The position numbers and the translations under genes were made by a program. From NCBI GenBank assembly GCA_963708295.1, contig CAVPSJ010000014.1:224001-288000 (forward strand): 64,000 nucleotides of DNA, in the 5' to 3' direction. This DNA comes from an uncultured delta proteobacterium. GTDB taxonomy: Bacteria; Desulfobacterota; BSN033; UBA1163. Below are positions 33,916 to 59,520 of the stretch, in pieces (the first letter of the stretch is position 1; the number at the start of each line of letters is the position of its first letter). The notes under the pieces were generated by a model, which searched no databases, was not told where the DNA came from, and saw nothing but the letters and a program-made list of their open reading frames with translations.

Positions 33916-33938
33916 GGCGAAGCCCTCCTTTCTCAGGG

Positions 33939-34751: not shown

Positions 34752-34810
34752 TTGAGTTCCAGTGACCCTCTCTCATGGATCAGCGCTTCGATTGCAGAGC
34801 CCTGCCCCGC

Positions 34811-35704: not shown

Positions 35705-35878
35705 AACCGTATTTTTTTCCCTGATCCTGGGGGGTCGGAATCCATCCGCGGAGCGAAGGCGAACATAGTCTCACCGTTTGAAAGTGTGATATCGGATACT
35801 GCCCGCGCATCACCGGGCAGGGTCTCTCTCATGAGTCCCTTGCCCGGTTTCTAGCCGATGTGATATTCTACGGGCGGA

Positions 35879-37183: not shown

Positions 37184-37255
37184 GTTCTGCCTCCTCTTTT
37201 GAAAGTTTTGGATTCCCTCGTCAGACCGATTGTCTGCCGAGATGAATCCTTCGAT

Positions 37256-38359: not shown

Positions 38360-38436
38360 GTCCTCTGCCTCTTTTTCCGTTTGTATGAAATCGAGAATCC
38401 GGAATTTAGCAACCCGAAGGTACAGTAATGGATTGC

Positions 38437-39291: not shown

Positions 39292-39311
39292 GTTACCTCC
39301 ATTCCTGACAG

Positions 39312-40347: not shown

Positions 40348-40440
40348 TCCGTGATTTTCAGTGATTCTGGCTGGCCCTATTCTAAATACCGGATAAGAAA
40401 TCCTAGTGATAACGATGGAAATTTACTCTCAGGTGAGTTG

Positions 40441-40470
40441 AATATAACGAAAAATGAAGTCGTGTGTCAA
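40441..40470 (-). promoter_or_regulatory. Putative sigma70 promoter of the sugar-acid cluster
   Basis: TTGACA-18-TATATT on the minus strand. Confidence 0.45.
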
Positions 40471-40540
40471 CCGAAAAGACCCTTCCCACCCCCAATTTTC
40501 TCTCCTATCGACAAATAGTTATCGACCAGAGGGGCGAGCT

Positions 40541-40648
40541 TTGAAGCTCGCCCCCTGGGGCGGCACTTCCCGGTAATGCACTGTCATTCGTATTGTGCCC
40601 CTTGGCTCCGCCTCTAAGGGGAAGCTTGCGGAGCACGTTCCGGCCCGA
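40541..40648 (-). mobile_element. Non-autonomous IS200/IS605-like palindromic element, copy 2 (degenerate)
   Basis: tgaagctcgccccctggggcggcacttcccgg...gtgccccttggctccgcctctaagggg..cttgcggagcacgttccggc. Confidence 0.6.
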
Positions 40649-40992
40649 ACCTTTAGAATGCGGCCAGGATCGGATGTTACGGAGGTCCTCGTCGGTATCA
40701 AGAAACAAAACCGGGTGAGGATTTGGGCGGGCCCTGAAGAGGCTTCATCGGCTCAACCGCTGCAGGGTTTGGCTGCCTGAGTTTGAAGGGGGGAGAATGG
40801 GGATCAATGTCATGAGGGCCTTGATCCGGGGTACCCTTAGCGCGAGCCTTATGAAGCCTCCGAAGGGATTTACCCGGGGGCGGGCAAGGAAAAGACCCCC
40901 TTGAAACCGTAACTCCTCCGGAGGTGTGAAAAAATTGGCTCACGTACCAAAGTCGAGAGGATGGGTGGGTTAACCATGCAATGAACGGAGGG

Positions 40993-42002
40993 TTAGCAGA
41001 TTCTCGGATATTGCCCGCCCGTCAACATGTCCAGGATCCTGTGACCGCCGATCACTGTATGGAGAATCACTCTTTTCCGATTCTCCTCTGTCACGCTTCC
41101 GATGATCGCCGCATCTCTTCCGAGGGGGTGGCTTTTCATCACTTCCAGGAGCCGTTCTGCCTCCTGGGAAGGACAGATGGCGATCAATTTTCCCTCATTG
41201 GCAAGATACAGCGGATCCAACCCCAACAGTTCGGAGATTCCCTTGACCGATTCTCGTACCGGAACTCTTTCCTCTTCGATCACCATTCCCACATTTGACG
41301 TCGAGGCAATCTCATTGAGGGTCGTGGCCAACCCGCCGCGGGTCGGATCGCGCATGCATCGGAGGGAAGGGCAGACATCCAGCATCTTTCCAGCCAGGTC
41401 GTTCAACGGGGCAAGTCACTTTCTAATTCCCCTTGAAATTTGAATCCCTCTCTCCGGGAGAGGACCGCCATCTCATGATCTCCCAGGGGGCCGTTCAAAA
41501 GAATTTTATCTCCCGGCCTGGCATTGCCCCCTGAAAGGTTGACCCCCGGCCTGATCCATCCGATTCCAGCGGTATTGATAAACAATTGATCTACGGCTCC
41601 GTGTTCCGCTACTTTGGTGTCGCCCGTGACAATCGCCACCCCTGCCTGGGCAGCCGTATCGTGAATAGAGGAGGCGATCCGTTCAAGAAGATCGATGGGG
41701 AATCCTTCTTCGATAATCAGCGAGAGACTCAAATAGGCCGGGGTAGCTCCGATCATAGACAGATCGTTCACGGTTCCGCATACGGCCAACTTTCCGATAT
41801 CGCCCCCCGGGAAAAAGATAGGGTTGACGACGTAGGAGTCCGTGGTGAAACCGATCATTCCCTGTCGATTTGTTATCTTCGCGCCGTCATCCAAAGGTTC
41901 AAGGAAAGGGTTTGAAAATTGGGGGAGAAAGATCTGCTTTATCAAGTCGTGAGAGAGTTTGCCTCCGCTCCCGTGGGCGAACAGGATCTTTTCGTCGCTC
42001 AT
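40993..42002 (-). CDS. hypE: Hydrogenase carbamoyl dehydratase (frameshift near 41410)
   Basis: HGSGG, TTDSYVV, GDTKV, MRDPTRGG, C-terminal PRIC. Confidence 0.92.
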
Positions 42003-42129
42003 AGGGTATTCTCCTTAAAGGGTTCAAGGATTCGAGGGGTCTAGGGTTCAAACACTTCATGGTCAACTATTCGATACGGTCCCTAACAAGGTCACTCGAC
42101 CGCTTGAATTCTTGAAATGAGGATTTCAC

Positions 42130-42233
42130 TCGCCGGAACGTGTCCCGCAAGCCCCCTTGTAGGCGGGGTCAAGGGACACATATGAACGAAATTTCCTTCC
42201 GGGAAGCCCCGCCCTGTGGGCGGGGAGCTTCAC
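42130..42233 (+). mobile_element. Non-autonomous IS200/IS605-like palindromic element, copy 3 (opposite orientation)
   Basis: gccggaacgtg...gaagccccgccctgtgggcggggagcttcac; sits inside a periodic repeat tract (42020-42256). Confidence 0.7.
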
Positions 42234-42255
42234 CCTGGGCCCTTGCCCCCTCGAA

Positions 42256-43333
42256 TTATTGATATTTAAAGTACGTATGGCAGGTTCCTTCGATGGAGAC
42301 CATGCAGGGACCGATCGGGTTCTCGGGATGGCAGACTTTTTTGAACAACCGGCATTCCAGAGGAGTTTTGATCCCCTGAAGCACCTCTCCGCAAAGGCAA
42401 TCCGGATGCTCTTTCACCGGTTCCACATCCACCTCGAACTTCCTGACATCCATCTCTTTGTAAGACTCTCTGAAACGGTACCCGCTGTCCGGAATCAGTC
42501 CGAGACCTCTCCAGCGGCCCTCATCCTCTTCGAAGACCTCGTAGATCTTGCTCAGGGCCGTTGGATTCCCTTCTTCGTGGACGACCCTTCGATACTGGAT
42601 CTCGACGGCCGCCCGGTCCTCTTCGATCTGTTTGACGAGCATCCAGATTCCCTGAAGGATATCCAGCGGTTCAAAGCCGGTGATCACCGCGGGTCGTCCG
42701 AACTCTCTTGCGATGAATTGATAGGGATGTGTCCCAAGGATTGTGCTCACATGGCCGGGAAGGATCAAGCCATCGATCTTCACCTGCTTTGCTTGCAGGA
42801 GCGCGATGAGGGCAGGAGGGACCCGCTTCTGGCTGTTCAAGAAAAAGAGATTCCGTAACTCTTCTTCTTTGGCCCGGAGGATCGCCACGGCAATGGTAGG
42901 GGAAGTGGTTTCGAAACCGATGGCCAGGAAGACCACTCTCTTTCCCGGGATTCTCGTTCGCTATCTTTAATGCATCGAGAGAAGAGTAAACGATTCGGAT
43001 GTCTCCTCCCTCGGCCTTCTCCTTCTGCAGGCTCGACGTCGAGCCGGGGACTCTCATCATGTCGCCGAAGGTTGCGATGATCACATCCTTCTGCCTGGAG
43101 ACGGCGATGGCGAAATCGATATCGTGATTGGGAGTGACGCAGACGGGGCAGCCCGGGCCGGAGATCAGCCGGATCTGCTCCGGAAGGATTCCTCTGATCC
43201 CGTACCGAAAGATAGAGACCGTGTGAGTTCCGCAGACCTCCATCAACTGAATGGGACGGGAGGAAGTCTCCTGGATCTTCCGGATCAGTCCTGCGGCAAT
43301 CTCTTTGTCACGAAACTCATCCATGAACTTCAT
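42256..43333 (-). CDS. hypD: Hydrogenase formation protein (frameshift near 42945)
   Basis: MEVCGTHT, GPGCPVCVT, GFETT, PGHVS, GPCMVSIEGTC. Confidence 0.93.
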
Positions 43334-43376
43334 ATCGATCCCTCAGGGTGAAATCCCCTCCTCGAGTGGTCGCGTC

Positions 43377-43595
43377 TCACGTCGCTTCCGCCAGTTGCCT
43401 CAAAAGCTCGAACGTCTCCTTTGCTTCTTCCTCATCCACCTTCTGGATCGCAAATCCCGTGTGGATGAGAACATATTCCCCTACGGAAACATCCGGACAG
43501 AGGTCGAGCGAAACCTCTCTCAAAAGACCGCCCACGTCCACCTTCGCCACATTCTTCTCAATCTCGATGACTTTTCCGGGAATCGCTAAGCACAT
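43377..43595 (-). CDS. hypC: Hydrogenase assembly chaperone
   Basis: MCLAIPGKV..VLIHTGFAI. Confidence 0.95.
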   Translation of the reverse strand: MCLAIPGKVIEIEKNVAKVDVGGLLREVSLDLCPDVSVGEYVLIHTGFAIQKVDEEEAKETFELLRQLAEAT

Positions 43596-45864
43596 TGAAA
43601 TAACCTCATCTGGGCAATCACGGCCTGTCCCAATGAAATGCCCCCATCATTGGTGGGGACAAGATGGTGGGTATAGACATCAAACCTTGAACTTCTTAAG
43701 CCCTCCGTGACGAGGGAAAGGAGAAAGATATTCTGGAAGACGCCTCCGCTCAGAACGACACGGTTCAACCCATGCCTCGGATCGAATGGCCTCGCAGGTC
43801 GCGATAATCAGGCTGGCGATCGTACGATGGAATTTCCCCGAGATGATGGATGAGGACACCCCCGCAATCATATCACGAACGATCCCTCTAATCATCTCGG
43901 TCGGATCAATCGTCATTGGGCTCTCGATCTTTCTCGGTATGGAAAGGATATTCCTCTTTCACCCCGGGGTCGGCGATCTTCTCCAGTTCGATGGCGGCCT
44001 GTCCTTCATAGCGAACTTCATCTCTGATGGATAAAAGGGATGAGACCGCATCGAAGAGGCGGCCCATGCTCGAAGTCAGCGGGCTGTTGATCTTCTTTCC
44101 GATCGCCTTTGTCAGGATGTCCCATTTCTGCAGGTCGATCCTTTTCATCAGACCGATTCTCAATCGGGTGGCTTCCTCTCCAAAGGCCTCTGAAAGATAG
44201 ACCATGGCCATTCTCCATGGTTCTTTGATGGCCATGGAACCCCCGGGCATGGGGACTTTCTTCAGATGGGCCAATCGATCAAAGTCTCTCAGATTTGCCT
44301 TAATAAATTCACCCCCCCAGAGGGTGCCGTCCAATCCAAACCCCGTCCCATCCAGCGCGACTCCGATGACGTCCCCCTCTATTCCGTTCTCCACCATCGC
44401 ACTCACGATGTGGGCGTGATGATGCTGGACGCCGATCTTCGGAATATTCGGAATCGAAAGGGCATACTGGGTGGAGAGGTAGTCCGGATGAAGGTCATAG
44501 GCGACGGCCTTGGGTTCAATGTAGAAGAGTTTCTTAAAATGTTCGATTCCTTCCTCAAAAGAGGTGAGGGTTTCGAGATTCTCGAGGTCTCCGATGTGAT
44601 GACTCAGAAAGGCGTAATTCTCGCGAGTGAGGCAAAAGGTGTTTTTCAATTCTCCCCCACAGGCCAGGATCATTTCAAGGGGGAAGGAGAGTTTGATAGG
44701 GAAAGGGACATAACCTCGTGACCTTCGAAGGATATAAGGTTTCCCTTCAAAGATCCTTGTCACCGAATCGTCACACCTCATGTGGATCTCACGGTTGTGA
44801 AAGAGGAAATAGTCGGCGATCCTGGAGAGACGGTGAAAAGCCTCTTCATTGTTATAGGAGATGGGCTCGTCACTCACATTGCCGCTTGTCATCACCAAAG
44901 TCTTGAGGGGACCGTTGAGAAGAAGGTGGTGAAGCGGCGAGTAAGGAAGCATGACTCCAAGGGTATCCTGATAAGGAGCAACCGCGCCGGCGACCGGAGA
45001 GATTTCTCTCCTTCTCAGAATGACGATGGGTCTCTCGACGCCCAGCAGTAACTTCTCCTCTTCTTCGCTGACCTCACAGTGTTCCTTCACTTCCTCAAGA
45101 TCTCGGCACATCACGGCGAAGGGTTTATCCTCTCTAAATTTTCGGGATCTCAAGGAGGAGACCGCGTCCTGATTCCTTGCGTCACAGGCAAGATGAAACC
45201 CTCCCAGGCCCTTGATCGCTACAATCCTCCCTGCCGCGAGAAGATCCAGGGTCTTCTCAACCGGATCTCCGGGGACGGCTTGACCTGCGCGATCCTCCAG
45301 TCGAAGCGAAGGACCGCAGGCAGGGCAGGCGTTCGGCTGGGCGTGAAACCGCCGGTCCCTTGGGTCTTCATACTCCTTCCGGCAGACGGGGCACATGGTG
45401 AAAGGGGCCATGGTTGTTTTATGGCGATCGTAAGGGATGTCCTGAATGATGGTGAATCTCGGGCCACAGAGGGTGCAGTTGATGAAAGGATATCGGTATC
45501 GAAAATTCCCGGGTGAGAAAAGCTCGGAAAGACACGGATCGCAGGTGGCCAGGTCGGGAGAGATGAGGACGAATTTCTCTTGAGCCTCTTCGCTCTTTCT
45601 TATTTCAAAAAGGGTGTAGCCCAGAGGTTCAAGGTATTTGATATCAAACGATTCAATCCGGGCGAGGGGTGGCGCGAGCTTGGGAATATTCTGAATGAAG
45701 ACGTCGAGGTTTCCGTCTTCGCTTTCGGCATCGATAAAAACCCCCTTTTCGTTGTTGAGGACCCACCCGCGGATGGAATAGGCTTCGGCAAGACCGTAGA
45801 TAAAGGGCCTGAACCCGATTCCTTGAACCATGCCGGTAATCTTGATCTCCGCCCGCTTCACCAC
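43586..45864 (-). CDS. hypF: Carbamoyltransferase (frameshifts near 43910 and 43770)
   Basis: Acylphosphatase GMVQGIGFRPF, zinc fingers, QHHHAH, LSGGVFQN, NDGGISLGQ. Confidence 0.93.
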
Positions 45865-46036
45865 TTATTTTTAACACTCTTTTAAGACCACTTCAATGCC
45901 GGTGTCGCGCGGCTTTGCAGCCCTATTTACATCTCGTGGGAATTCGATTAGATTGTTAAAAGGTGCTTTTCCTTCCGTGCAACAAAGAATCGTTCGAAAA
46001 CTGAGCGATTCATTTATCCCTAATCCTAGAAGAAAG

Positions 46037-48505
46037 ATGAAACGAAATCGGGTTCTTGTCACACTGACGGCCGTCTTGCTGGCGGTTGTTTCTCTCCTGA
46101 CGCTTCACCTTCACTATGAAGGCATCCGGGAAGTTCTTTCTCAGTTTGAGAAGGATCAACTCTCTTACGCCAAACATCTTTCCAACCAGATCCAATTCTA
46201 TATCCAGGCCCGTTCACGAGGATTGAGGGCCCTCTCGTCATTCGCCTCTCTCCAACACGGAGACAGGAACAGGCAGAGGCTGGATATCGAAGCTTACGCC
46301 AATAAAATAGAGAAAGTTTATGTCAAATCGATTTCGCTCTACGATGAATCGGGAACCGTCGTCTATTCCACAGATCGGGAATCCATCGGCTTGAAGAAGA
46401 GAGAAGATAAATTCTTTGCCTGGGCACAAAAAAGTGAAAACAGGGACAAAATTTCACTGACCCCCGTTCTTTCTGAACCGCAATCTCTCACGTTTATCCT
46501 TGCCATTCCCCTGTATCAGGAGGTCTCAGATTCCAGGCATCCTAAGCCGGATGGGAGATTTCGCGGTGTTCTTACGTTTACTTTAGATATGAAAGAATTT
46601 CTCGTCGATCAGTTGGGCTCCGCAGACCCTAAAATGAATCTTGATCAAGTCTGGATCATGGATAAGGACGGGACGCTCCTGTTTGAACCCGATCATCCGG
46701 AGATGGTGTTCCGAAATATCTATCAGAAAGGGGGAAGCTGCCGTTCGTGTCACCTCTCTTTTAACTACATTGAAGAGATTTTGATGAAAAGGGAAGGGAC
46801 CGCCGACTATAAGATAAAGAACCATCCAAAGAAGATCGCTGCCTTTGCTTCCATGGAGTTCGAGAATGTCTCCTGGGTGGTCGTTGTGAATACCCCCTAC
46901 GATAAGGTGACCGGTTTTGTGGACAGAAGTCTGCGAGAGCACCTGTTCCTTCTCGGGATCGTTGTCTTAGCCTTTGCGATCGGTTCTGCACTCGTCGTCC
47001 GTAAGGAACGAATGAAGATCAAGGCAGAGGAAGAGGTGTTGCGCTGGCAGGAAAAAATGGCGGATCGCAGAAAGGCGGAGGAGGCCCTGGAAGGTGAAAG
47101 GAATAAACTCAAAGGAATCCTGGATTCGATGAACGACGGCGTTTACATCGTCAACCAGCAGTATGAGATCCTCTATACGAATCCCGTGATAGAGAAAGAA
47201 TTTGGTCCGGTCAAGGGACGCAAGTGTCATGAGTACTTCTACGATCTTCCTAACGTCTGCTCCTGGTGCAAGAGCAAAGAGGTCTTTGCCGGGAAAGACG
47301 GTCCGATGGGAATGGTATTCCCTAAAAACCGGCAAGACCTACGATCTCTTTGATACACCGATGATGGGTCCGGATGGAACCCTATGCAAATTGCAGTTCA
47401 GCCGCGACATCAGCGACCGGAAGAGGGCGGAAAAGGCGCTCCGGCAAAGCGAGAAACGCTATCGCATGTTGGTCGAGACGATGAACGAAGGGCTGGGAGT
47501 GCAGAATGAGCATGGAGAGTGGATCTACGTGAATGATCGGTTCTGTGAAATGTTGGGATACTCCAGAGATGAAATGATCGGCCGGCCGGTGACGGATTTC
47601 CTTAGCGAGAATGATCGGATCATCTATAAGGAACAGGTGGCCAGGCGAAGAAGGGGGGAGCGTGAATCTTACGGGCTTTCATGGTTAAAGAAAGACGGGC
47701 AGATGATTTTTACACGGGTCTCCCCGAAGGCCATTTTTGACGAGCGCGGTCAATTTAAAGGCAGCTTTGCCGTGGTCACCGACATCACGGAGCGAAAACG
47801 AGCGGAGGAGGCGTTGAAGGAATCGGAGAAGCAGCTTCGGCATCTCTCCTCCCAGCTCTTGACGGCTCAGGAAACAGAACGAAAGCGAATTTCGAGGGAA
47901 CTCCATGATGAATTAGGACAATCCCTGACGGTCATGAAACTCCGGCTCAATTTTATCGAAAAGAATCTGTTGGAACATCAGACAGATCTCAAGCAGGAAT
48001 GTGAATATGGCATCCAGTACATCGACCAGGTCATTGAAAATATCCGTCGTCTTTCAAGGGACTTAAGCCCCACCATCCTCGAGGATTTTGGGCTCTCGGC
48101 AGCCCTTCGATGGTTGATAAACAATTTTGCCAAGAGTTACAATATCCGGGTGATTCTGGATATGATCGATATCGATTCCTTGCTTCCCCGGGATTCTCAT
48201 GTCGTCGTTTACAGAACCGTACAAGAAGCCCTGACGAATATCGGAAAGCACTCCCGAGCGAAGAATGTGTCAGATCGCCGTCAATCTGAGATGACAGCTT
48301 CGGTTCTATTTTCCATTCAGGATGACGGAATAGGATTTGATGAGAAGAGGGTAACTGCGAAAAATCCTGAAGAAAGAGGGTTGGGTTTGGCAACGATGAA
48401 GGGACGGGCGCAGATGGTAGGAGGAGTCCTCAACATACGGACCCAGGAAGGAAAAGGAACCTCATCACGTTGAGCATCCCGATGAAGCGAGGAGAAACCC
48501 GGTAA
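46037..48505 (+). CDS. Sensor histidine kinase (periplasmic Cache-like domain with CxxCH, two PAS, HisKA_3); frameshifts near 47295 and in the C-terminus
   Basis: Two TM helices; SCRSCH; RISRELHDELGQ, QEALTNIGKH, QDDGIGF, GLGLATM. Confidence 0.88.
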
Positions 48506-49155
48506 TGGCACCTTATCGCATTGCATTGGCCGATGATCATGTCTTGGTCCGGCAGGGTCTGAGAAGGATTCTCGAGGGAATGGCCGATCTGGAGGTGATC
48601 GGAGAAGCAAATGATGGCCTCGAGCTGCTCAATCTCCTGAACCAGGTGACGCCTCACATGGTGATCCTTGACATCTTCATGCCAAATCTCCGAGGAATCG
48701 AGGCGATTCATGAGATCAAGAAAATCCATCCCGACGTGAAGGTATTGATTTTGACGATGCATAAAGACAAGGAATATCTTTACCTGTCCCTCTCTGCCGG
48801 GGCAAAAGGATACTTGCTTAAAGAAGATGCGGATAAGGAACTCTTTTCTGCGATCGAGAAGGTCCGCCAGGGAAAGACTTACATCTCCCCTTACTTCTCA
48901 GAGGAGGTCGTCGATGATTTGGTGCAGATCGGCAAGGGGGATACGAAGACGATTTTTGAGATGGACCCACTGACACCCCGTGAAAGAGAGGTCTTGAAGC
49001 TGATCGCCGAGGGAAAATCGAGCAAAGAAATTGCCAATCTTCTCTTCATCAGCGTTTCCACCGTAAATAACCATCGCGCGAGTATCATGGAGAAACTGAA
49101 CTTGAATAAAGCCACCGATCTCGTCAAATACGCCATCCGAAAGGGTTATGTTTGA
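48505..49155 (+). CDS. NarL/LuxR-family response regulator
   Basis: LADDH, LDIFMP, LTPREREVLKLIAEG..HRASIMEKL. Confidence 0.94.
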   Translation: MAPYRIALADDHVLVRQGLRRILEGMADLEVIGEANDGLELLNLLNQVTPHMVILDIFMPNLRGIEAIHEIKKIHPDVKVLILTMHKDKEYLYLSLSAGAKGYLLKEDADKELFSAIEKVRQGKTYISPYFSEEVVDDLVQIGKGDTKTIFEMDPLTPREREVLKLIAEGKSSKEIANLLFISVSTVNNHRASIMEKLNLNKATDLVKYAIRKGYV

Positions 49156-49386: not shown

Positions 49387-50331
49387 ATGGCGGTAAATGT
49401 CGTGGAAGATTGGTTGAACGCCTGCTCCGGTTGCGAGATTTCCATTCTCAATATTGGAGACCCCCTGCTGGACCTGTTGCCTCAATTGAACTTTGTCCAC
49501 ATAACGGCCCTGATCGATCACAAGTTTTTTGGTCAGCTGGGCGAGGGGACGGCCATGGAGGTTCCCGAGGCTGTGGTGGGCATCGTGTCCGGCGGCGTCC
49601 GTAACGAAGAGCAAAAACACGAATTACAGGAGATCCGCAAAAAGACCAAGTTTCTCATCTCCCTGGGCAGTTGCGCCTGCTTCGGCGGGGTACCGGCCCA
49701 GGCCAACATGTGGAAAAATGACGATGTCTTTGAAAAGGTGTTTCGCCAAAGCCCTTCCACCAATCCCTCCCCTAACCCGGAAGACCCCAATGTGCCGAAA
49801 TGGACTCCTACCTGCGCCGCGGTGGATGAAGTCGTCAAAGTGGACATCAGCATCCCCGGTTGTCCTCCCCACCCCGACTGGATTGCCGAGGCCGTCACCG
49901 CCCTGCTCCAGGGCAAGACCTCCTGGAGCCTGCCTGAGCGGAGCGTGTGCGACACCTGCCCGGTCATTCGGGAACAGAAGTCAGGCGGCGGCCCGGTCAA
50001 ACGCTGGCTGCAGAACATGGAATTTAACCCGGAAGAGGGCCTGGAGAAGATGCGCTGTATCAACGAGCAGGGTTACCTCTGCATGGGCACGGTGACGCTG
50101 GCAGGCTGCGCCGGCAAAACCGGGGTGCCCCGGTGTATTCAGGCCCGGACTCCCTGCCGGGGCTGTTTCGGACCCATCCGCAAGGGAGCCCAGCCCATGG
50201 TGGATATGATGGGCGCCCTGAGCTCAGTGGGGCTGGACCCCAAATCGATGCTGGATCGGCGGGCCATGATGAACCGTTATATCGGCGGCCATGGCAACCT
50301 GAAGGTGCTGCCGGCGCGACCGGCGAAATGA
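49387..50331 (+). CDS. mvhG: Group 3c-type [NiFe] hydrogenase small subunit
   Basis: WLNACSGCEIS, GSCACFGG, PGCPP, SVCDTC, CRGCFGP; no Tat signal. Confidence 0.88.
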   Translation: MAVNVVEDWLNACSGCEISILNIGDPLLDLLPQLNFVHITALIDHKFFGQLGEGTAMEVPEAVVGIVSGGVRNEEQKHELQEIRKKTKFLISLGSCACFGGVPAQANMWKNDDVFEKVFRQSPSTNPSPNPEDPNVPKWTPTCAAVDEVVKVDISIPGCPPHPDWIAEAVTALLQGKTSWSLPERSVCDTCPVIREQKSGGGPVKRWLQNMEFNPEEGLEKMRCINEQGYLCMGTVTLAGCAGKTGVPRCIQARTPCRGCFGPIRKGAQPMVDMMGALSSVGLDPKSMLDRRAMMNRYIGGHGNLKVLPARPAK

Positions 50332-50344
50332 GGAGGTGAAACGC

Positions 50345-51788
50345 ATGAGCAAAGTGATCAATATTCAGCCAGTAACCCGGATCGAAGGCCACAGCAGGGT
50401 AGCCATCACCCTGGATGATGCAGGCAATGTTGTCGATACCAAGGTTCATGTCCAGACCTTGCGCGGCTTTGAGAAATTTTGCGAAGGTCGGCCGGTAGAG
50501 GAGATGCCCCGGACGGTCTGCCATATCTGCGGCATCTGCCCCTGGGCCCATCACCTGGCCTCCAGCAAAGCGGCGGATGGCTGTTTCGGCGTTACACCGC
50601 CACCGACCGCGGTGAAATTGCGCCGCCTGATGCAGAGCATCGCTTACGTGAGCGATAAAATCCTCAATTTTTACTTTCTGGCGGCTCCCGACTTTGTCAT
50701 CGGTCCCGACGCCGACTATTCGGTGCGCAATGTGGTGGGCATCCTCCAGGCCGCCCCGGACATTGCCAAGAAGGTGGTGCATATGCGCCATTTGGGGGCC
50801 CAGATGCTGGAGGGGTTTGCCGGTCGGGCCATCCATCCCACCTTCTCCGTGCCGGGCGGGGTGAGCAAACCCCTCACCGAAGCCGATCGCGCAGAAGATG
50901 CTTCCCCCGGCCCAGGAGCTGCTGGAGTTCGCCAAGTTCTCCATCAAGTTCGCCAAGGAGAATGTCTTCCCGAAGTACCTGGATGCCATCAAATCCATCG
51001 GCGTCATCAAGGTGGGCTACCTGGGCACCGTGCGGGAGGATGGGGCGCTCGATTTCTATGACGGCAAGCTCCGGATGATGAAGCCGGACGGCTCCTACGA
51101 AGATTTCAAATACGACCAGTACCTGGATTACATCGGCGAATGGGTGGAGTCCTGGTCCTATCAGAAGTTCCCCTACGCCAAAAAATGGGGCAAACTCAAC
51201 CTGTCATTGGAGAACCCCGTCGGGGTGTACCGCACCAACTGTCTGGCCCGTATCAACGTGGCCGACAAGATGGCAACCCCCCTGGCCCAGGCCGAGCTCG
51301 AGGAGTTCCGGGCTGCCTTTGGCCGGCCGGCCCACTACACCTTGCTCTACCACTACGCCCGCCTGATCGAACTCCTGCAGGCGGCGGAAACCGTGGTGGA
51401 ACTCCTGAACGACCCGGAGATCACCAGCACCAATATCCGGGTACCGGTTACGGCCAAAGCGGGCCGGGGCGTGGGTTGCGTCGAGGCCCCCCGGGGCACC
51501 CTGATCCACGATTATGAGTGCGACAATGACGGCCTGATCACCAAGGTGAACCTGATTGTGGGCACGACCCACAACAACGCCGCGATCAATCTCTCGGTGA
51601 ATCAGGCGGCCAAAGAGTTCATCAAAGAGGGCAAGTACGACCAGGGAATCCTGAACAGGGTGGAGATGGCCATACGCGCCTACGACCCCTGACTGAGCTG
51701 CGCCACTCACCGCCTGGATGGCGGTATGGCCATAGATCTCACCATCCTGGATCTCCAGGGCCGGGTGATCGATACTCTCAGTAAGTAA
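50345..51788 (+). CDS. mvhA: [NiFeSe] hydrogenase large subunit; frameshift near 50895, Sec (UGA) at 51690-51692
   Basis: PVTRIEGH, ICGICPWAH (L1), EAPRG, RAYDP-U-LSCATH (L2) followed by a cleavable C-terminal tail. Confidence 0.9.
51709..51725 (+). promoter_or_regulatory. Putative bacterial SECIS hairpin
   Basis: ACCGCC-TGGAT-GGCGGT starting 16 nt after the UGA. Confidence 0.65.
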
Positions 51789-51862
51789 GAATGGTTGGTT
51801 TGGATGGAGGCCGGGGCCGCAGGCGTTGTTACGGAGAGCGGGCCCCCGGCCCAAAGGGGACC

Positions 51863-51903
51863 TGCCCGGCTGGATGGAAGAATGCCCAGCCGGGCACTTT
51901 TTT
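51863..51903 (+). terminator. Rho-independent terminator after mvhA
   Basis: tgcccggctgg ... ccagccgggca followed by T6. Confidence 0.7.
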
Positions 51904-52001
51904 ACCCTGTCACCGACCAAACCTAAATCCTCTCGATCTTCGATCAAAAGGTTTTCTTGCTAAACTTGAGGTCTGGCCGCATTCTTAGCTTGCTCTATTC
52001 C

Positions 52002-52049
52002 ATAGCTATTTCTAATCACCTAAAAATGATTATTTCTGTGGATTGATCC
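52002..52049 (+). promoter_or_regulatory. Putative response-regulator binding box, copy 2
   Basis: atagctatttctaatcacctaaaaatgattatttctgtggattgatcc. Confidence 0.6.
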
Positions 52050-52099
52050 AGAAGTGTCGGTTTGCTACAAAGAAAGCGTTAACAGAGGAGAGACTGTTC

Positions 52100-52501
52100 A
52101 TGGTCCCTTACCGGATTGTCCTGGCAAATGATCATATGCCCCTCCGGGAATGCTTGAAGAGGATTCTGAGGGAAAAATCCGATCTGGAGGTCATCGGGGA
52201 AGCTGAAAGCGGTTCCGAACTCCTTAACCTCTTGAAATTGAGCGAATTAGCTCCCCAGATGGTCATTCTGGACCCGTCCATGCCGAATTTCCACGGAATC
52301 GATACGATCCGTAAAGTGAAGACGATCCACCCTGAAATAAAAGTGCTCATCCTGAGCATGCACAAAGATAAGGAATACCTCAGCCAGGCTATTCTTGAAG
52401 GAGCCGAGGGCTACTTAATCAAAGAGACTGTTGATAAGGAGCTCCTGCCGGCCATTGAAATGATTATGCGGGGAAGAATCTATGTTCCTCCTTTCCCCTG
52501 A
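52100..52501 (+). CDS. Receiver-domain-only response regulator (paralogue of 48505-49155)
   Basis: PYRIVLANDH..ILDPSMP..MHKDKEYL..GYLIKE; ends before the HTH. Confidence 0.8.
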   Translation: MVPYRIVLANDHMPLRECLKRILREKSDLEVIGEAESGSELLNLLKLSELAPQMVILDPSMPNFHGIDTIRKVKTIHPEIKVLILSMHKDKEYLSQAILEGAEGYLIKETVDKELLPAIEMIMRGRIYVPPFP

Positions 52502-52574
52502 AAAGATTCTAAATTTCGCAACGAGACTTCGACAGGGAAAAGAAAGAAAAACTTAACTGGAGGGGTAATCCAAC

Positions 52575-52772
52575 ATGCCCAGTGATGCGATTCTAATGAA
52601 CGGAAAGAAGTTTATGTGGGATGGCGTTGATTATCCGGATGGAGAAAAAGCTTCGGAGAAGACGCAGAAGTACAAAGCGGAAGGGTTCGAAGTTGAGGTA
52701 TACGAAGAGGAAGGAAAAACTTACCTTTACACGAGAAGAGTTGTCAAACATGTTGTTGTCTCCAACGCTTAG
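52575..52772 (+). CDS. Small hypothetical protein (65 aa)
   Basis: GGAGG RBS; GKKFMWDG..Y..YLYTRRVV. Confidence 0.75.
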   Translation: MPSDAILMNGKKFMWDGVDYPDGEKASEKTQKYKAEGFEVEVYEEEGKTYLYTRRVVKHVVVSNA

Positions 52773-52854
52773 GATTTCTAATCTAGATCGGAAGACTCTA
52801 TCAGGGATTTGGATTTCGTCGTGGGAGTCCTCGTTTGGGGGTTAGAGAGACGCT

Positions 52855-53449
52855 ATGCAATCCACGGATGAAATAAACGAAGACATCCTTGTTCTGGGAT
52901 GCGGAAATATCCTTTTCGGTGATGACGGCTTCGGATCTTCCGTGGCGGAGCATCTCCAAAGCTGTAGCCTTCTCCCGGAGAATGTCTCGGTCATCAATGC
53001 AGGAACAAGCGTGAGAGAAATTCTCTTTGATCTTATCCTCAGCGAGCAGAGGCCCAGAAGAGTCATCGTCATCGATGCCGTCGACGCAAAAAGGAGGCCG
53101 GGAGAGATATTCAGAATCGATCTCGACGAGATTGCCGAAAAATAAGATCGATGACTTCACCCTTCATGAGATGCCCACTTCAAATCTGCTGAGGGAGTTG
53201 AGAGATTTCTGTCATGTTGAAGTGGTCATCATCGCCGGCCAGGTCGAGTCCATCCCGGAAGCGGTCAGGCCGGGGTTGTCGGAGGCGTTAGCCAGAAGCG
53301 TGCCTGTTGCCGTAGAGGAAGTCTTGAAATTGTGTCACGAACCGTGCGGAAACCCTGCGAGATCAAGTTCGGAGGGGGATTGTTCCACGAGGGAGAATAC
53401 AAGAGTTTCTGGATTCAGAGGAGTGACCATCAGAAAGGAGTGGCAGTAA
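52855..53449 (+). CDS. Hydrogenase maturation protease (frameshift near 53140)
   Basis: VLGCGNILFGDDGFG, IDAVD, TLHEMP. Confidence 0.88.
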
Positions 53450-54617
53450 TGAGTTATGATTGCGACCCGACACTGCTGGCTGAAGTTCGGAAATATGGGA
53501 AAGTTTGACGTGGCAGGTTGTTTTAACTGTGGGAGCTGCGTCCTGAGCTGCGATCTGGCAGGAGATCATGCCTCCTTTCCAAGGAGGTCGACCCGCCACG
53601 TATTGATGGGCCTGAGAAAACTCCTTAACGAGAGCCTGGACCCATGGATCTGTCACGACTGTGGCGACTGTGCGACTGTCTGCCCCCGACAGACAGAGCC
53701 TCGGAAGTCGATGAAGACGCTGCGACGCTATCTGGCTTCGGTTTACGACTGGACAGGGATTGCAGCCAAGATCAACAGCTCCAAGGCTTGGCACATCGGG
53801 ACCCTTGCGTTCGTGGCAATTCTGGTGCTGGTGCTCATCGGCCTTTACCATGTCTACGTTGTGAAAATGCCTCTTTATGGATTTTGCTTCAACCTCCATG
53901 GGGTTGGAGCACATGTTTCCCTTGATGACCTACTTCACCCTGGTGGTGATCCTCTTCCCTCTGTTGATCCTGATGACCAACGCCTTTCGCATGTACCTCT
54001 TCACCGTCCACCGGAAGGAGATCATCAAGACACCCCCTTCCCAGTGGCTTATCGAAGCCAAGATATTTCATGCTCCACTTCTTCACTTACAAAAAGATGG
54101 CGGAATGTCCGACCGAAAAGGGTCGATGGTTCAAGCACATGTTCCTCGCTTCCGGATGCCTGGGCATGCTCGTTCTGCTTGTCTTCTGGGTGAGATGGTT
54201 TCAAACCGATAAGATCTATCCCGTTTACTCACCCCCAGCGATGGATCGGCTATGTCGCTGCGGCCTTTCTGATCTTTGGCACGGTTGACATTCTGGTCGG
54301 CCGCCTCAAGAAAGAGAAGGAGATCCACAAGACCTCCGATTTCAGGGATTGGACGTTTCCGATCTTGCTGCTGGCAACGACGGTGAGCGGAATCGTGGTC
54401 CACATCCTCAGGGTTTCCGGACTTGAGCTGGCCACCCATTACAGCTACGCCATTCACATAATGATCTCTGTCCCCATGCTGGTCATTGAAATGCCTTTCG
54501 GAAAATGGACCCATATGATCTACCGTCCGTTGGCCCTTTACTTTCAATCACTCAAGAGAGAGGACCCTGGAGCAGCAGGTGTCCTCGGAGGGGGTTCCTG
54601 AGTATGTCACCTCATGA
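53449..54617 (+). CDS. QmoC-like protein (HdrC-type 2[4Fe-4S] N-domain plus membrane heme-b domain); several frameshifts
   Basis: [27 protein letters not shown], several TM helices, [14 protein letters not shown]. Confidence 0.78.
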
Positions 54618-57600
54618 AACTCAAGACGAAAAAGGTTGGCGCAGCATTCATCGTCGGCGGCGGAATCGGCGGGATGCAGGCTGCCCTCGACCTGGCGGCG
54701 TGCGGCATCAAGGTCTATCTCGCCGAGAACAAGCCTTCGATCGGCGGCGTCATGTCTCAACTGGACAAGACCTTTCCCACCAATGATTGTGCCATGTGTA
54801 CCCAGGCGCCCGAGGCTGGTCGAGATCGGCAGGCACAAGGATATTGAGATCCTTTCCCTGAGTGAGGTGGAAAGCGTGAAGGGAGAGCCGGGAAATTTCC
54901 AGGTCACCCTCAGGAAAAGGCCCCGCTATGTGGATATCAACAAGTGCACCGGGTGTGGTCTCTGTTTCCCCAGTTGTCCGGTCGTCATGAAGAATGAGTT
55001 CGATCTCGGATTATCGGAACGGAAAGCGATCTACACCCTCTTTCCTCAGGCTGTGCCGAACAAGGCGGCGATCGACAAGCGGGAGGAGCGCCCCTGCAAG
55101 GCCGCTTGCATGGATCGCTGCCCTGTCCATACCAACGTGCTCGGTTATGTCAAGCTCATTGCCGAAGGCAAGTTCCAGGAAGCCTATCAGATGAACCGGC
55201 ATGTCAATCCCCTTCCCTCTGTCTGCGGCAGGGTCTGTTACGCCCCGTGCGAGGAGGCCTGCAACCGGGGACAACTGGAAGAACCGATCGCCATTCGCCA
55301 ACTGAAGATGTTCGTTGCCGATCAGGTCAATATCGATGAACTTCCCGTTCCCCAGATCACAAAAACGGGCAAGAAGGTGGCCGTCATCGGCGCCGGACCC
55401 GGCCGGTCTGGCGGCGGCCAACGATCTCGCGTTGGAGGGACATGAGGTCACCATCTTCGAAGCCCAGCCGGAACCCGGAGGCATGCTGCGTTACGGCATT
55501 CCTGAATACCGGCTGCCCAAAGAGACACTGGGCAAGGAGATCAACTACATCCAGAAACTTGGGGTGGAGATCAAGACCGGCGTTCGAGGTGGGCAAAGAC
55601 ATCTCCCTTGGCGATATCCAGAAGGATCACCAGGCCGTTTTCATCGGAGTCGGCGCCCAGGGAGGCATGAAATTAGAAGCAGAAGGATCGGACCTTCCGG
55701 GCGTGACGGATGGAATCAAGTTCCTTCAGGCCGTCAACCTGGGTGAGAAGGTTCAGGTCGGGAAGAAGGTCGCCGTCATCGGGGGAGGGAATACGGCCAT
55801 TGACTGCGCCCGGACAGCCAAACGCCTGGGAGCGGGAGGAGGTGAGGATTGTCTACCGTCGCTCCCGTGCCGAAATGCCCGCTTCGGAAGAAGAGATCGA
55901 GGCTGTGGAGAAAGAAGGGATTAAGATCGATTATCTGACCTTGCCCAAACGATTCTTCTCCGAAGGCGGAAGACTTTCAGGAATGGAGTGCATCGGGATG
56001 ACGCTCGGCGACCCGGATGCCAGCGGCCGGCGTCGGCCGATTCCTGTTCCTGGTTCTGAAGCCACCGTGTCGGTGGACACCGTGATCGCTGCCCTCGGAC
56101 AAGTGACACAGGTTGAGTTCTTGAAAGAACTGGGGGTATCTCTGACCAAAAACGGCACGGTCGAAATTGATCCAAAGACAGGGGCGACGAACATCGAAGG
56201 GATATTTGCGGGTGGAGACGTTGTCACAGGAGCGGCTTATGTCATCGATGCCATTGCAGCGGGGAAAAGAGCCGCACGTTCGATCAGCCGGTATCTGAAG
56301 GGTGAACCGATCGAGATCGCGGAGGAGGAGAAACAACCTGAAAAACTGACCGAGAAGGAAGTCGCTGCCTTGAAACAGCGTTTTCCTTCTCAAAAGCGGG
56401 TGGAGATGGGAGAAGTCCCTGTAGCGAAGAGGATCAACAACTTCCAGGAGGTGGCCCTGGGGTTCAAGCCTCAGGAAGCCGTTGCAGAAGCGATGCGGTG
56501 TCTGGCGGGTCAGATTGAGGGATGCATCGAATGCGGCGAGTGCGAACGGCGTTGCGAGGCCAAGGCCATCGATTATGGGCAGAAAGAAGAAAACATTGAA
56601 TTGAACGTGGGCGCGATCATTCTGTCCCCCGGATACGAGCTTTTTGACGCAAAAGCCAAACCGGAATTCGGTTACGGCCGTTTTCCGAATGTCGTCAGCG
56701 CCATCGAATTTGAGAGAATCCTCTCCGCTTCAGGGCCCTATTCCGGAAAAGTGTTGAGACCTTCCGACAAGAAGGTCCCCAAACGGATCGCCTTCATTCA
56801 GTGTGTCGGGTCCCGAGATTCTGAAAGGGATTATCTGTTCCTCCATCTGCTGCATGTATGCGACGAAGGAGGCCATCATCGCCAAGGAACATGCCGGGTG
56901 AGGATTTGCAGTGTGACGTATTCTTGATGGACATGCGGGCCTTCAGCAAGGGATTCGAGGAATATTATGAAAGGGCAAAGCAACTCGGGGTAAACTACAT
57001 CCGGTGTCGTCCGGCCTCCAGTTGAAGAGAGACCTGAAACCCGGAATCTCGTCATTCAATACCTGATTGAAGACGAGAAGAAGGTCTCCCGGGAATACGA
57101 TATGGTGGTTCTGTCCACCGGCGTGCAGCCCCCGCAGGATGCGGACAGAATTTCCAAAACCTTCGGAATGGATTTGAATGAGTATCATTTCTGCAAGACC
57201 TCGACGTTTCGGCCGGTCGAATCCAATCGGGAGGGGATCTATGTCGCCGGACCCTTCGCGGAACCGAAGGATATCCCCGAAACGGTCATGGAGGCATCGG
57301 GCGCGGCATCAAAGGTTCTATCGCTTCTGAAGGACGTCAGGGGCAGTCTGATCGTGCAGAAAGAATTTCCCCCGGAGAGAGACGTCACGGGCGAGGATCC
57401 GAGAATCGGGGTCTTTGTCTGCCATTGCGGGTCGAATATCGGCGGATTTGTCAATGTTCCGGACGTGGTTGAATACGCAAAGACCCTTCCGAATGTGGTC
57501 TATGCAGAGAATAATCTCTACACCTGCTCAAACGATACGCAGGAAAAGATCAAAGAAAAAATAGAAGAGCATCGCTTAAACCGCGTGGTCGTTGCCTCAT

Positions 57601-59105
57601 GCACCCCTCGAACCCATGAACCTCTTTTCAGAAACACCCTCCGGGAGGCGGGGCTCAACCCTTACCTCTTTGAGATGGCGAACATCAGAGACCAGTGTTC
57701 CTGGGTGCATATGCACGAACACGAAAAGGCCACCCTCAAATCAAAGGACCTGGTGAGAATGGCCGTCGCAAAGGCAAGGCTTCTCGAACCCCTTCAGACA
57801 AGGTCGGTTCCCATCACGAAATCGGCCCTTGTCATCGGCGCTGGACTTTCCGGAATGACCTCTGCCCTGGGACTGGCCAATCAGGGTTTTGATGTCTATC
57901 TGGTGGAGAGGGAAAAAGAGATTGGGCGGCCACCTCAGGAATATCCATTACCTGATCGACGGGACAAAACTTCACGAGGAATTCAGATCGCTCAGGAAAC
58001 AGGTGAAAGGAGAATAACAGGATTCATCTATTTACGCAGGCGAAAATCGAAAAGATCGAAGGCTCCATCGGCCATTTCAAGACAAAGATCGCGATGAACG
58101 GGACATCCAAGGAATTCGAGCACGGAACGGTCATTGTCGCAACGGGTGCAAAGGAGTATCAGCCCAAGGAATATCTGTATGGAGAGGATGAAAGGGTCAT
58201 GACACAACTGGAACTGGAGCGACGGCTGGTCGTGGTTGATGACTTTATTTCATCGCCCGGGAAAGGGCCCCGGAACCGTCGTCATGATTCAATGCGTGGG
58301 CTCCCGCGATGACGAAAGGCCCTACTGCTCGAGGTTATGCTGCACCGAAGCGGTGAAGAATGCTCTGAAAATAAAAGAACTCTCTCCGACGAGCAATGTC
58401 TACGTTCTCTACCGGGACGTAAGAACGTATGGATTTAAAGAAAGCTATTACACGAAAGCAAGACAGCAAGGGGTCGTGTTCATCAGATACGATAAGGATA
58501 AGAAACCGGAGGTTTCAAAAAATGGGAAGGCATTAAAGGTTCATGTCTATGACCAGACGCTGGGAATTCCGGTCGACGATCTCCGCCAATCTGGTCGTGC
58601 TGTCGGCAGGGATCGTTCCAAACGAGGACAGCAAGACCATCGCCCAATTCTTGAAAATCCCGTTGAACAAAGATGGGTTCTTCCTCGAGGCCCATATGAA
58701 ATTACGGCCCATCGATTTTGCCACCGACGGAGTCTTCCTGGCCGGCATGGCTCACTTCCCGAAAGCCATCGAAGAGAGCATCGTCCAGGCCCAGGCCGCA
58801 TCCGCAAGAGCGGCCACCGTCCTTTCAAAGGATCGTATCGAGCTGGAAGGGAATATCTCCTTCGTGGTGGATGAGAACTGCGACGGCTGCGCCTACTGCG
58901 TGGATACCTGTCCTTACAAAGCGATTACGTTGTTGGAATACATGAGAGGAGGATGCCGTCAAGAAGACGGTTGAAGTGAATGAGACGGTGTGCAAGGGCT
59001 GCGGGTGCTGCATGGCCACCTGTCCGAAGAAAGGGAATATTTGTGAAGGGATTTAAATTGGAACAGATCTCGGCTCAAGTCAATGCTGCCTTGGGGGTGG
59101 AATGA
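54614..59105 (+). CDS. Large HdrA-family flavoprotein with inserted GltD/NfnB-like NAD(P)H oxidoreductase domain (HdrL/BamE-like); many frameshifts
   Basis: [56 protein letters not shown] twice, [17 protein letters not shown], terminal ferredoxin motifs. Confidence 0.85.
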
Positions 59106-59520
59106 TGAACGAAACATTTTGATCCTTTGATCATCGGTTTTTGCTGCAATTGGTGTTCCTATGCTGGAGCGGATCTGGCAGGCGTTTCCAGGATTCAGTA
59201 TCCGACGAGCTTAAGAATCGTCAGGGTGATGTGCTCGGGCATGGTCCATCCCGAACCTGGTGATCGATGCCCTGACCAAGGGGGCCGACGGGGTCTTGAT
59301 CTGCGGATGTCACATCGGGGACTGCCATTACCAGGAAGGCAATTTGAAGGCGGAAAAGAGGGCCGAGGCCATAAGACTGATGTTGGAGGATTTCGGGATT
59401 GAGAACGAAAGATTCAGATTGGAATGGGTTTCCGCGGCCGAGGGCCCGAGGTTCGCCCAGGTGGTTCAGGAATTCACGGAACAGGTAAAGCAATTAGGGC
59501 CCAGTTCGTACAAGACGTAA
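59105..59520 (+). CDS. mvhD: MvhD/FlpD-type [2Fe-2S] subunit (frameshifts)
   Basis: [34 protein letters not shown]. Confidence 0.9.

Follow-up and report, generated by a model that had tools for sequence, protein, structure and literature searches.

The DNA analysed here is a stretch of 64,000 nucleotides, hereafter called the window, which corresponds to positions C14:224001-288000 in the genome of an uncultured delta proteobacterium (genome G000, 91% complete). Window positions 49387-59520 carry, on the plus strand, genes encoding a putative group 3c-type hydrogenase (MvhG and MvhA), a membrane subunit resembling QmoC, a very large HdrA-type flavoprotein fused with a GltD-like domain (HdrL) and the adaptor MvhD. 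Genes were called by Pfam and NCBIfam profile scans of the open reading frames (ORFs) of the window and of the intact orthologues present in G006 and G010, two genomes of the same genus (Table 1). Every gene named in an initial annotation of this DNA, which had been made from its letters alone, was recovered by these scans in its place and on the plus strand. Two genes absent from that list were added, a receiver-only response regulator and a small ORF, both located between mvhA and the gene of the maturation protease. The initial annotation had also reported that neither HdrB nor AprAB is encoded in the window, and this is correct. None of the 37 matches of the genome to the CCG domain of HdrB (PF02754) falls inside the window, the nearest one being at C14:313459, about 25 kb past its end, and no match to AprA reaches the cut-off in the 91% complete genome (best score 77.5 bits vs. 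641.75). Neither HdrB nor apr genes were found in a Pfam scan of the 51 other ORFs of the window. With the same scan and the AprA profile search, no sulfur-carrier, apr or dsr gene was detected at the locus or in the window.

Table 1. Features of the hydrogenase locus and of its surroundings (positions refer to the window; extra bases are those found by alignment to the G006 proteins)
Feature	Position	Strand	Remarks
mvhG, small subunit of the group 3c-type [NiFe(Se)] hydrogenase	49387-50331	+	intact, 314 amino acids; Pfam Oxidored_q6 (PF01058), E 2e-29
mvhA, large subunit	50345-51788	+	480 codons; Pfam NiFeSe_Hases (PF00374) on both halves; one extra base near 50891
Selenocysteine codon TGA of mvhA	51690-51692	+	DPULSCATH when TGA is read as U
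Candidate selenocysteine insertion sequence (SECIS) hairpin after this codon	51690-51749	+	predicted -20.2 kcal/mol
Receiver-only response regulator	52100-52501	+	Pfam Response_reg, E 8e-22; between mvhA and protease
Small ORF, 65 amino acids	52575-52772	+	position kept in G010 (71 amino acids; L017 11372-11587)
FrhD/HycI-type hydrogenase maturation protease	~52855-53362	+	Pfam HycI on both halves; one extra base near 53134
QmoC-like subunit	~53449-54617	+	Pfam Fer4 families (Fer4_8 and others) and Nitrate_red_gam; five extra bases, near 53497, 53873, 54009, 54229 and 54557
hdrL, HdrA::GltD fusion	54604-59105	+	~1495 codons; Fer4_20 and Pyr_redox_2; fourteen extra bases, near 54628, 54809, 55398, 55585, 55835, 56835, 56899, 57020, 57921, 58012, 58277, 58575, 58954 and 59030
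GltD/NfnB-like insert part of hdrL	54980-56552	+	no DNA match in G010 and G012
mvhD, [2Fe-2S] adaptor, Cys form	59105-59520	+	overlaps the hdrL stop codon; two extra bases, near 59114 and 59250
hypB, hypA, hypE, hypD, hypF, then dCache-PAS histidine kinase and LuxR-type response regulator	30709-49155		Pfam scan; upstream of mvhG
SelA, selenocysteine synthase	25738-27183		Pfam scan of window

The best NCBIfam matches of the two hydrogenase subunits were VhuG for MvhG (190.5 bits, below the cut-off of 450) and VhuA for the MvhA orthologue (473.5 bits, below the equivalog cut-off of 800), the latter also matching VhuU at residues 432-457. The nickel-ligand motif DP(C/U)xxCxxH is present in MvhA in its selenocysteine (Sec) form, as the initial annotation had read it. 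The hairpin predicted after the Sec codon is a weak candidate, with a z-score of -1.83 and 11 out of 200 shuffled sequences folding at least as well. The partners of a group 3c enzyme, mvhD and hdrL, are encoded alongside. MvhD shares 116 of 137 residues with the MvhD of G006 and has a Cys where the latter has a Sec. The protease orthologue matches TIGR00130 (frhD) with 124.6 bits and hydrog_prot with 121 bits.

The intact HdrL of G006 is 1495 residues long, in agreement with the HdrA of about 1500 codons with an inserted GltD-like domain described initially. Fer4_20 and Pyr_redox_2 are located at its residues 165-553, inside HdrA. Against the HdrA chain of the methanogen complex (5ODC_A), this protein aligns with an E-value of 2e-197 in four stretches: residues 40-160 to HdrA 171-291, 638-854 to HdrA 291-511, 928-1100 to HdrA 2-174, and 1305-1489 to HdrA 467-647. 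On these alignments, HdrL is a fused and permuted double HdrA, one unit of which corresponds to HdrA 171-511 and the other to HdrA 2-174 together with 467-647. The first unit keeps the TNDC-x2-C/U motif near the N-terminus. The insert (residues 161-637) matches NfnB, NfnA (Bfu type), Stn-type and GltD chains with E-values from 1e-68 to 1e-130. As it is flanked by HdrA sequence ending at position 291 and resuming at position 291, the GltD-like part separates the first Cys motif of the inserted ferredoxin domain from the second. This module is present in the window, G005 and G006. In the DNA of G010 and G012, the latter also of the same genus, only query positions 1-5594 and 7167-10100 are matched, the insert being skipped. 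The hdrA gene of these two genomes is divided close to this position, within the same linker. The gap contains a NuoF-like gene, and the N-part and C-part of HdrA carry fused NuoE-like and NuoG-N-like (2Fe-2S) domains, respectively. What is new here, judging from these comparisons, is the placement of an NAD(P)H module within the inserted ferredoxin domain of HdrA, close relatives holding a NuoEF/Bfu-like module instead.

The subunit encoded just upstream of hdrL combines an N-terminal HdrC-like domain for two [4Fe-4S] clusters with a NarI-like membrane domain of six helices. Its homology with QmoC, proposed initially, stands over the full length of the protein: intact orthologues match the NCBIfam qmoC model NF038018 at model positions 2-360 (E 1e-50 to 1e-55), but with 172-190 bits they remain below the curated equivalog cut-off of 300, so that the assignment stops at QmoC-like. 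The first ~100 residues are similar to HdrC chains of the PDB (E 1e-10), and in this profile search against PDB sequences only the HdrC-like domain found matches, with no NarI among them. Six His residues, the check on which the initial annotation had made its proposal depend, are invariant across phyla in 89 sequences (positions 134, 154, 229, 317, 335 and 354 of the G010 protein). The predicted topology places all of them within helices or at helix ends, two towards the cytoplasmic side of the membrane and four towards its outer side. The spacing of 19 between His335 and His354 resembles the spacing of 18 between the two helix-V haem ligands of NarI. Six His may be enough for two haems b, and formally for three, as in the twin-haem EMO. 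A first structural model, built from 12 sequences, was too poor for use (predicted local distance difference test, pLDDT, of 54). The AlphaFold2 model obtained from the 89 sequences reached a pLDDT of 80.8 and a predicted template-modelling score of 0.81. Foldseek found no match to this model in the PDB at E <= 0.001, HdrC, EtfD and NarI appearing as weak rows only. With VIA-align, the best fold match among natural proteins was EtfD (9OJN; Z 10.3 over 226 residues), followed by NarI (1Q16_C, residues 2-225; Z 9.8), values within the range that helical bundles reach by chance. Other candidate pairs of QmoC-like and HdrA genes in the genome (C17:219 kb, C12:25 kb and C8:239-245 kb) turned out to encode HdrC and CCG (HdrD-like) proteins. 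The QmoC-like subunit of the locus is therefore the only NarI-type partner of an HdrA in this genome.

To survey the arrangement, an alignment of QmoC-like proteins was used as a profile and scanned against one genome per GTDB species. The figures below concern the best 80 loci of 532 relatives of the QmoC-like subunit, each taken with 10-kb flanks; modules were called by tblastn with G006 and G010 proteins as probes, and taxa were counted from record titles. The QmoC-like gene is directly followed by the N-part of HdrA in 77 of these 80 loci. Among the remaining three, one ends no more than two bases past the QmoC-like gene and two have the NuoE part next. This adjacency reaches beyond Desulfobacterota, the group in which the initial annotation had suggested looking for synteny. 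Full flanks, taken as no less than 4.5 kb upstream and 9.5 kb downstream, are available for 48 loci; MvhG and MvhA are both present in 44 of them and MvhD in 46. The pyridine-nucleotide module is GltD only in 57 of the 80 loci, NuoF only in 14 and both in 5, the last 4 ending too early. Record titles point to Acidobacteriota for 53 loci, to Desulfobacterota (Syntrophorhabdales and others) for 12, to Bacteroidota/Ignavibacteria for 9 and to Gemmatimonadota for 2, with one locus each for Binatia, Myxococcales, Aminicenantes and Eubacteriales; at least seven phylum-level groups are thus represented. Gene order varies, mvhGA being located before or after the other genes and at times on the opposite strand, and the set is kept. 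Because the set persists despite this varying order, the survey gives strong evidence, at the level of sequence, that it constitutes one functional module across phyla.

The loci of the NuoEF type are L017 (G010; 3136-9541), L018 (G012), L024-L026, L028, L033, L044, L049, L056, L068, L077, L089 and L096-L098. In two of the surveyed loci, genes for DRTGG, CBS-PHP and HATPase_c proteins lie inside the split hdrA (L025 14065-17100 and L095 5886-8171). Such a set is presumably typical of operons of bifurcating [FeFe] hydrogenases (Bfu-type), and its presence in the gap suggests that a whole Bfu-type module was inserted with its regulators. NuoEF-like and GltD-like modules occur together in L079, L091, L092, L095 and L103, under Myxococcales, Ignavibacteriales, Eubacteriales and Bacteroidota labels, and in L095 NuoF and GltD are fused in one protein of 1057 residues.

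Regarding selenocysteine, the Sec position of MvhA is a stop codon in 8 Desulfobacterota-labelled loci and a Cys codon in 48 other loci; MvhA thus appears as a Sec protein in Desulfobacterota-type loci and as a Cys protein in Acidobacteriota-type loci. The HdrA of G006 contains one Sec codon, in the motif TNDCAMU, and its MvhD also contains Sec. At both places, TNDCAM-U/C in HdrA and GG-U/C-H in MvhD, G006-like genomes have Sec and the window has Cys. The use of Sec therefore differs gene by gene among close relatives (L027 (G006), L031, L032 and L086 vs. the window and G010).

No biochemically characterised complex of this composition was found in the literature, as had been supposed initially. 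The gene set itself is not without precedent: HdrL followed by MvhD has been annotated since 2009, and an Mvh-Qmo-Hdr cluster is in print for Candidatus Methanoglobus. A search of full-text literature, with supplementary tables outside its scope, returned no description of Mvh, a QmoC-like subunit and HdrL together. In the Archaeoglobi Candidatus Methanoglobus nevadensis and Candidatus M. hypatiae, the published cluster is described as comprising MvhAGD, two HdrA and an HdrC-QmoC fusion, without HdrB or AprAB. It is reported to be highly expressed and was proposed, from genome and transcriptome work, to bifurcate H2 electrons to menaquinone and ferredoxin. Compared by description, all its elements are present here, including MvhA/G/D, the HdrA-type flavoprotein and the fusion of HdrC with a cytochrome b domain, our two HdrA units being fused in one gene. 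In contrast, the accessible description of the archaeal cluster has two separate hdrA genes and reports no NAD(P)H module, whereas the gene studied here is a single fusion of ~1495 residues with a GltD/NfnB-like insert, its hydrogenase is a Sec enzyme and its host is a bacterium.

HdrL, a fusion of HdrA with the small subunit of glutamate synthase, often containing Sec and followed by mvhD, was defined in Desulfobacterium autotrophicum (Strittmatter et al. 2009) and described again in Syntrophobacter fumaroxidans; electron exchange from or to NAD(P)H was proposed for this type of protein. By description, our protein is of the same type, with HdrA and a GltD-like NAD(P)H/FAD domain in one polypeptide, then mvhD. 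Those loci, however, lie beside dsr, fdh or hdrABC genes, the enzymes are described as soluble, and the passages available mention neither a QmoC-like subunit nor MvhGA beside hdrL. With the MvhAGD-HdrABC complex of methanogens (PDB 5ODC), the locus shares a hydrogenase that is putatively of group 3c type, the MvhD adaptor, the HdrA flavoprotein and an HdrC-like domain. It differs by having no HdrB/CCG domain, by the fusion of HdrC to a NarI-like membrane domain, and by an HdrA that is duplicated, permuted and interrupted by the GltD-like module. The QmoABC complex of sulfate reducers has in common with it an HdrC-like Fe-S domain joined to a membrane domain, which here is predicted to bind haem b, as well as two HdrA-like units and an MvhD-like element. 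The locus departs from QmoABC in several respects: its membrane subunit scores below the equivalog cut-off, aprAB is missing from the 91% complete genome, both HdrA units belong to one polypeptide, MvhD has a gene of its own, and the set has a hydrogenase and an NAD(P)H module built in. Ramos et al. proposed that Qmo con- or bifurcates electrons with a hydrogenase as a possible partner, and they noted the absence of such partner genes next to qmo.

Two further systems help to interpret the architecture. In a cryo-electron microscopy preprint on class II benzoyl-CoA reductase, BamE is presented as a domain-permuted, fused HdrA dimer, whose bifurcating FAD sits in the N-terminal unit next to the pair Cys59-Cys62. 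High-potential electrons are reported to leave BamE from the cluster of the thioredoxin-reductase (TrxR) domain towards the HdrBC-like BamD and low-potential electrons through the inserted ferredoxin domain, the flavin being fed by BamF, an MvhD-like adaptor with Sec. The fused and permuted HdrA dimer, the N-terminal CxxC next to the bifurcating FAD, the MvhD-like adaptor and the coupling to a second flavin module make BamB-I similar, by description, to the complex proposed here, relatives of the G010/G012 type being especially alike since BamGHI is a NuoEFG/Bfu-like module. According to the preprint, the output there is a tungsten ring reductase together with BamD/ETF and the input ferredoxin and NADH, whereas here they would be the QmoC-like subunit with quinone, and H2. 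EtfD/EMO (PDB 9OJN) is described as passing electrons to menaquinone through a NarI-like haem-b domain and an HdrC-like two-cluster domain; in EtfD, however, the membrane domain comes first and an HdrB-like CCG domain is present, which is absent here. Papers on Acidobacteria of peat and soil mention group 3c hydrogenases by class only in the text available; one of them lists such an enzyme for an acidobacterium in culture.

We propose that the locus is a live operon, found across phyla, for a membrane-anchored Mvh-type [NiFeSe] hydrogenase complex that would split the electrons of H2 between menaquinone and NAD(P)+. We give this reading a probability of roughly 55%. Gene content, domain order, the insertion point, the Sec codon, conservation and synteny are observed directly; the formation of the complex, its cofactors, the direction of electron flow and bifurcation itself are what we infer from the genes. 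In such a complex, MvhA/MvhG would oxidise H2 and MvhD would relay the electrons to HdrL, where the bifurcating FAD would sit in the first thioredoxin-reductase-like unit. Menaquinone would then receive the high-potential electron by way of the QmoC-like subunit, across its HdrC-like [4Fe-4S] domain and its b-haems, this subunit occupying the position that HdrBC and the heterodisulfide have in methanogens. The replacement of HdrBC by a quinone-facing subunit, already suggested initially, fits the adjacency of the QmoC-like and HdrA genes in 77 of the 80 loci. The low-potential electron would leave through the inserted ferredoxin domain and the GltD/NfnB-like flavin to NAD(P)+, possibly also to ferredoxin. 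We would therefore assign the GltD-like module to the low-potential branch and the QmoC-like subunit to the high-potential branch, with 2 H2 + MQ + NAD(P)+ -> MQH2 + NAD(P)H + H+ as the net reaction (MQ, menaquinone). The exergonic quinone branch would allow NAD(P)H or reduced ferredoxin to be formed from the trace H2 of peat or wetland soil. At 1-10 Pa H2, the calculated potential of the H+/H2 couple is about -270 mV. At such a value NAD(P)+ would be reduced only with the help of the quinone branch, and this is what bifurcation would be for.

Several points weigh against this reading. At standard H2 pressure, both acceptors are more positive than the donor and bifurcation is not thermodynamically required, so the argument rests on an assumed low concentration of H2 in situ. 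The score of the QmoC-like subunit below the curated cut-off, the fold-match Z of ~10 that is within chance range for helical bundles, and the derivation of haem binding solely from conserved His belong to the same side. For the synthesis of menaquinone in the 91% complete genome, the MqnA family gave no match and MenA matches were below the cut-off.

The same complex could run in reverse in a syntroph, menaquinol and NAD(P)H or reduced ferredoxin being confurcated to cytoplasmic H2 to dispose of the electrons of acyl-CoA oxidation. We regard this as unlikely, although it is the best placed of the alternatives. Some relatives are labelled Syntrophorhabdales, Syntrophaceae or Syntrophorhabdus, the window contains acyl-CoA dehydrogenase and CoA-transferase genes, and syntrophs are described as feeding menaquinol from an EtfD/EMO-type NarI-HdrC-HdrB protein into H2 or formate production. 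The confurcating Qmo with a possible hydrogenase partner put forward by Ramos et al. points the same way. However, NAD(P)H at -320 mV and menaquinol at -74 mV have a mean of about -197 mV, from which H2 could be formed only far below 1 Pa. Calculated from these textbook potentials, the reverse direction would need reduced ferredoxin or proton-motive force as a drive. Moreover, 53 of the 80 best loci come from Acidobacteriota-labelled metagenome-assembled genomes (MAGs) of soil or peat, which are not known syntrophs. Reverse electron transport, which the initial annotation had mentioned as a possible role, would on standard potentials be the less favourable direction if NAD(P)H is the low-potential partner.

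We find it improbable that the QmoC-like subunit is a mere membrane anchor, or a wire to a periplasmic or sulfur-linked acceptor, in what would essentially be a membrane-held H2:NAD(P)+ (and/or ferredoxin) oxidoreductase. The missed QmoC equivalog cut-off would be compatible with such a role, and NarI-type domains are reported to vary in haem number and coupling. Nevertheless, the lack of sulfur-carrier, apr and dsr genes at the locus and in the window, the alignment of the whole NarI chain to the membrane domain, and the His residues invariant across phyla at both membrane faces all speak against it. Every member of the NarI/HdrE/QmoC/EtfD group studied so far is described as having (mena)quinone or methanophenazine as its electron-exchange partner.

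The reading of the operon as live has to deal with its broken frames, which the initial annotation had seen and had taken as possible signs of a dead locus. For this purpose, six G006 proteins were aligned to the window by dynamic programming with frame jumps allowed. Between mvhA and mvhD, 23 breaks were located (1 in mvhA, 1 in the protease gene, 5 in the QmoC-like gene, 14 in hdrL and 2 in mvhD), each of them a single extra base in the window, with no missing base. No in-frame stop was found besides the conserved Sec TGA. G006 has intact orthologues in the same architecture, with a single HdrA::GltD gene of 1495 codons, and mvhG, mvhA and the genes of the protease and of the QmoC-like subunit are all intact in G010. 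Identity to G006 amounts to 291/314 residues for MvhG, which has no break, 447/480 for MvhA, 122/177 for the protease, 259/406 for the QmoC-like subunit and 1182/1495 for HdrL. The ratio of non-synonymous to synonymous substitution rates (dN/dS; Nei-Gojobori, window vs. G006) ranges from 0.05 to 0.16 in all six genes. A search of sequencing runs for this stretch returned 16 DNA runs, each sharing at most 0.14 of the sampled words, and no RNA run. In addition, contigs from four other metagenomes, ~88-95% alike and thus from relatives of another strain than the source, lack one base at six sites at least (50892, 57926, 58577, 58947, 59030-59036 and 59116); the base missing at 50892, in mvhA, was seen in three of the four. 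These contigs show the base content of relatives and not that of reads of the source sample.

Breaks are not confined to the locus. They were also found in hypE (1), hypD (1), hypF (2), the kinase gene (1-2), a pyruvate:ferredoxin oxidoreductase (POR)-like gene (one extra base at about 13433) and a gene at C14:131 kb. The error-rich part of the window covers about 41-59.5 kb (hyp genes 40996-45864, kinase 45896-48473, then the locus). Breaks in the flanks mix +1 and -1, unlike the pattern inside the locus. Genes matched on contigs C8 and C4 showed no break in the same frame test. Other MAG records (L042, L043, L056 and L044) have the same genes in several tblastn pieces, MvhG of L043 in four of them; the assembly of the window is therefore not alone in having frame errors clustered at this locus.

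The 23 breaks are very probably errors of assembly, since decay would hardly be expected to yield 23 indels and not one nonsense codon, deletion or rearrangement. Three things speak against this: the strict +1 bias, in contrast to the mixture of +1 and -1 breaks on the rest of the contig; the fact that only ~9 of the 23 inserted bases adjoin an identical base; and the reliance of the argument on the sequences of relatives and not on reads of the source sample. If the breaks were real, the locus would be a recently inactivated set of pseudogenes, with another hydrogenase of the genome taking over. A density of 23 breaks in 9 kb vs. ~8 in ~45 kb of flank, the lack of a preference of the breaks for homopolymers, the open frames of other HdrA paralogues and a second intact [NiFe] large subunit at C17:590912-592141 would agree with such an inactivation. 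However, if substitutions outnumber indels, decay giving 23 indels should also have given many substitutions and several stops, and there is no nonsense codon, deletion or larger rearrangement in 9.3 kb. The low dN/dS, the single kind of all the breaks (+1) and the intact state of mvhG and the regulators also contradict it, and breaks in the neighbouring hyp genes fit regional assembly trouble better than selection. A dead locus thus seems a poor explanation, and the locus should not be scored as pseudogenes in this genome. Programmed +1 frameshifting or quadruplet decoding was rejected, the 23 sites sharing no motif and the relatives reading straight through. Homopolymer-type long-read error as the sole cause was not supported, given the few inserted bases that adjoin an identical one. 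The module is real and widespread, a variant of a published cluster type that is blurred by assembly errors in this genome.

These results matter for annotation, as bacterial group 3c hydrogenases are usually annotated as heterodisulfide-linked although this disulfide is absent from their hosts. In the cluster described here, the hydrogenase is instead paired with a QmoC-type membrane cytochrome and an NAD(P)H-binding HdrA. The same combination is seen in hundreds of species-level genomes, the membrane subunit having 532 relatives, and the Acidobacteriota that dominate peat and wetland soils are prominent among them. If electrons from trace H2 are split as proposed, this would explain the use of H2 below the threshold for direct reduction of NAD(P)+. 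It would also provide a hard-wired and testable model for the hypothesis of con- or bifurcation by Qmo and extend the bifurcating enzymes of the HdrA family to a membrane-bound one. A bolder extension, which we regard as speculative and rather doubtful, is that the inserted ferredoxin domain is a socket for interchangeable pyridine-nucleotide modules and that the membrane hydrogenase represents a new energy-converting, doubly bifurcating class abundant in peat Acidobacteriota. Two potentially bifurcating flavin sites would then stand in series on a membrane-anchored hydrogenase. As its six invariant His exceed by two the number required for two haems, the QmoC-like subunit might bind three haems b, like the twin-haem EMO, and the reduction of quinone by H2 would be coupled to, or driven by, proton-motive force.

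Finally, we looked at the surroundings of the locus. The kinase and the LuxR-type regulator directly precede mvhG, and with the hyp genes further upstream they place the locus in a neighbourhood of hydrogenase maturation and regulation. A pyruvate/2-oxoacid:ferredoxin oxidoreductase-like pair followed by NuoE-, NuoF- and NuoG-N-like genes at window positions 11340-16937 may form a second NADH/ferredoxin-linked module. On another contig, the region C17:586046-592141 contains the second unbroken [NiFe] large subunit (an open frame of 486 residues) about 3 kb from a GltD/HdrA-like gene, and the organism may therefore have a second cytoplasmic hydrogenase. Within the locus, the receiver-only regulator sits at the same place in G006 and G010. 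The 65-residue ORF next to it has no Pfam match, so that the gap between mvhA and the protease gene holds, beside a conserved regulator, a conserved ORF of 65-71 residues of no known family.

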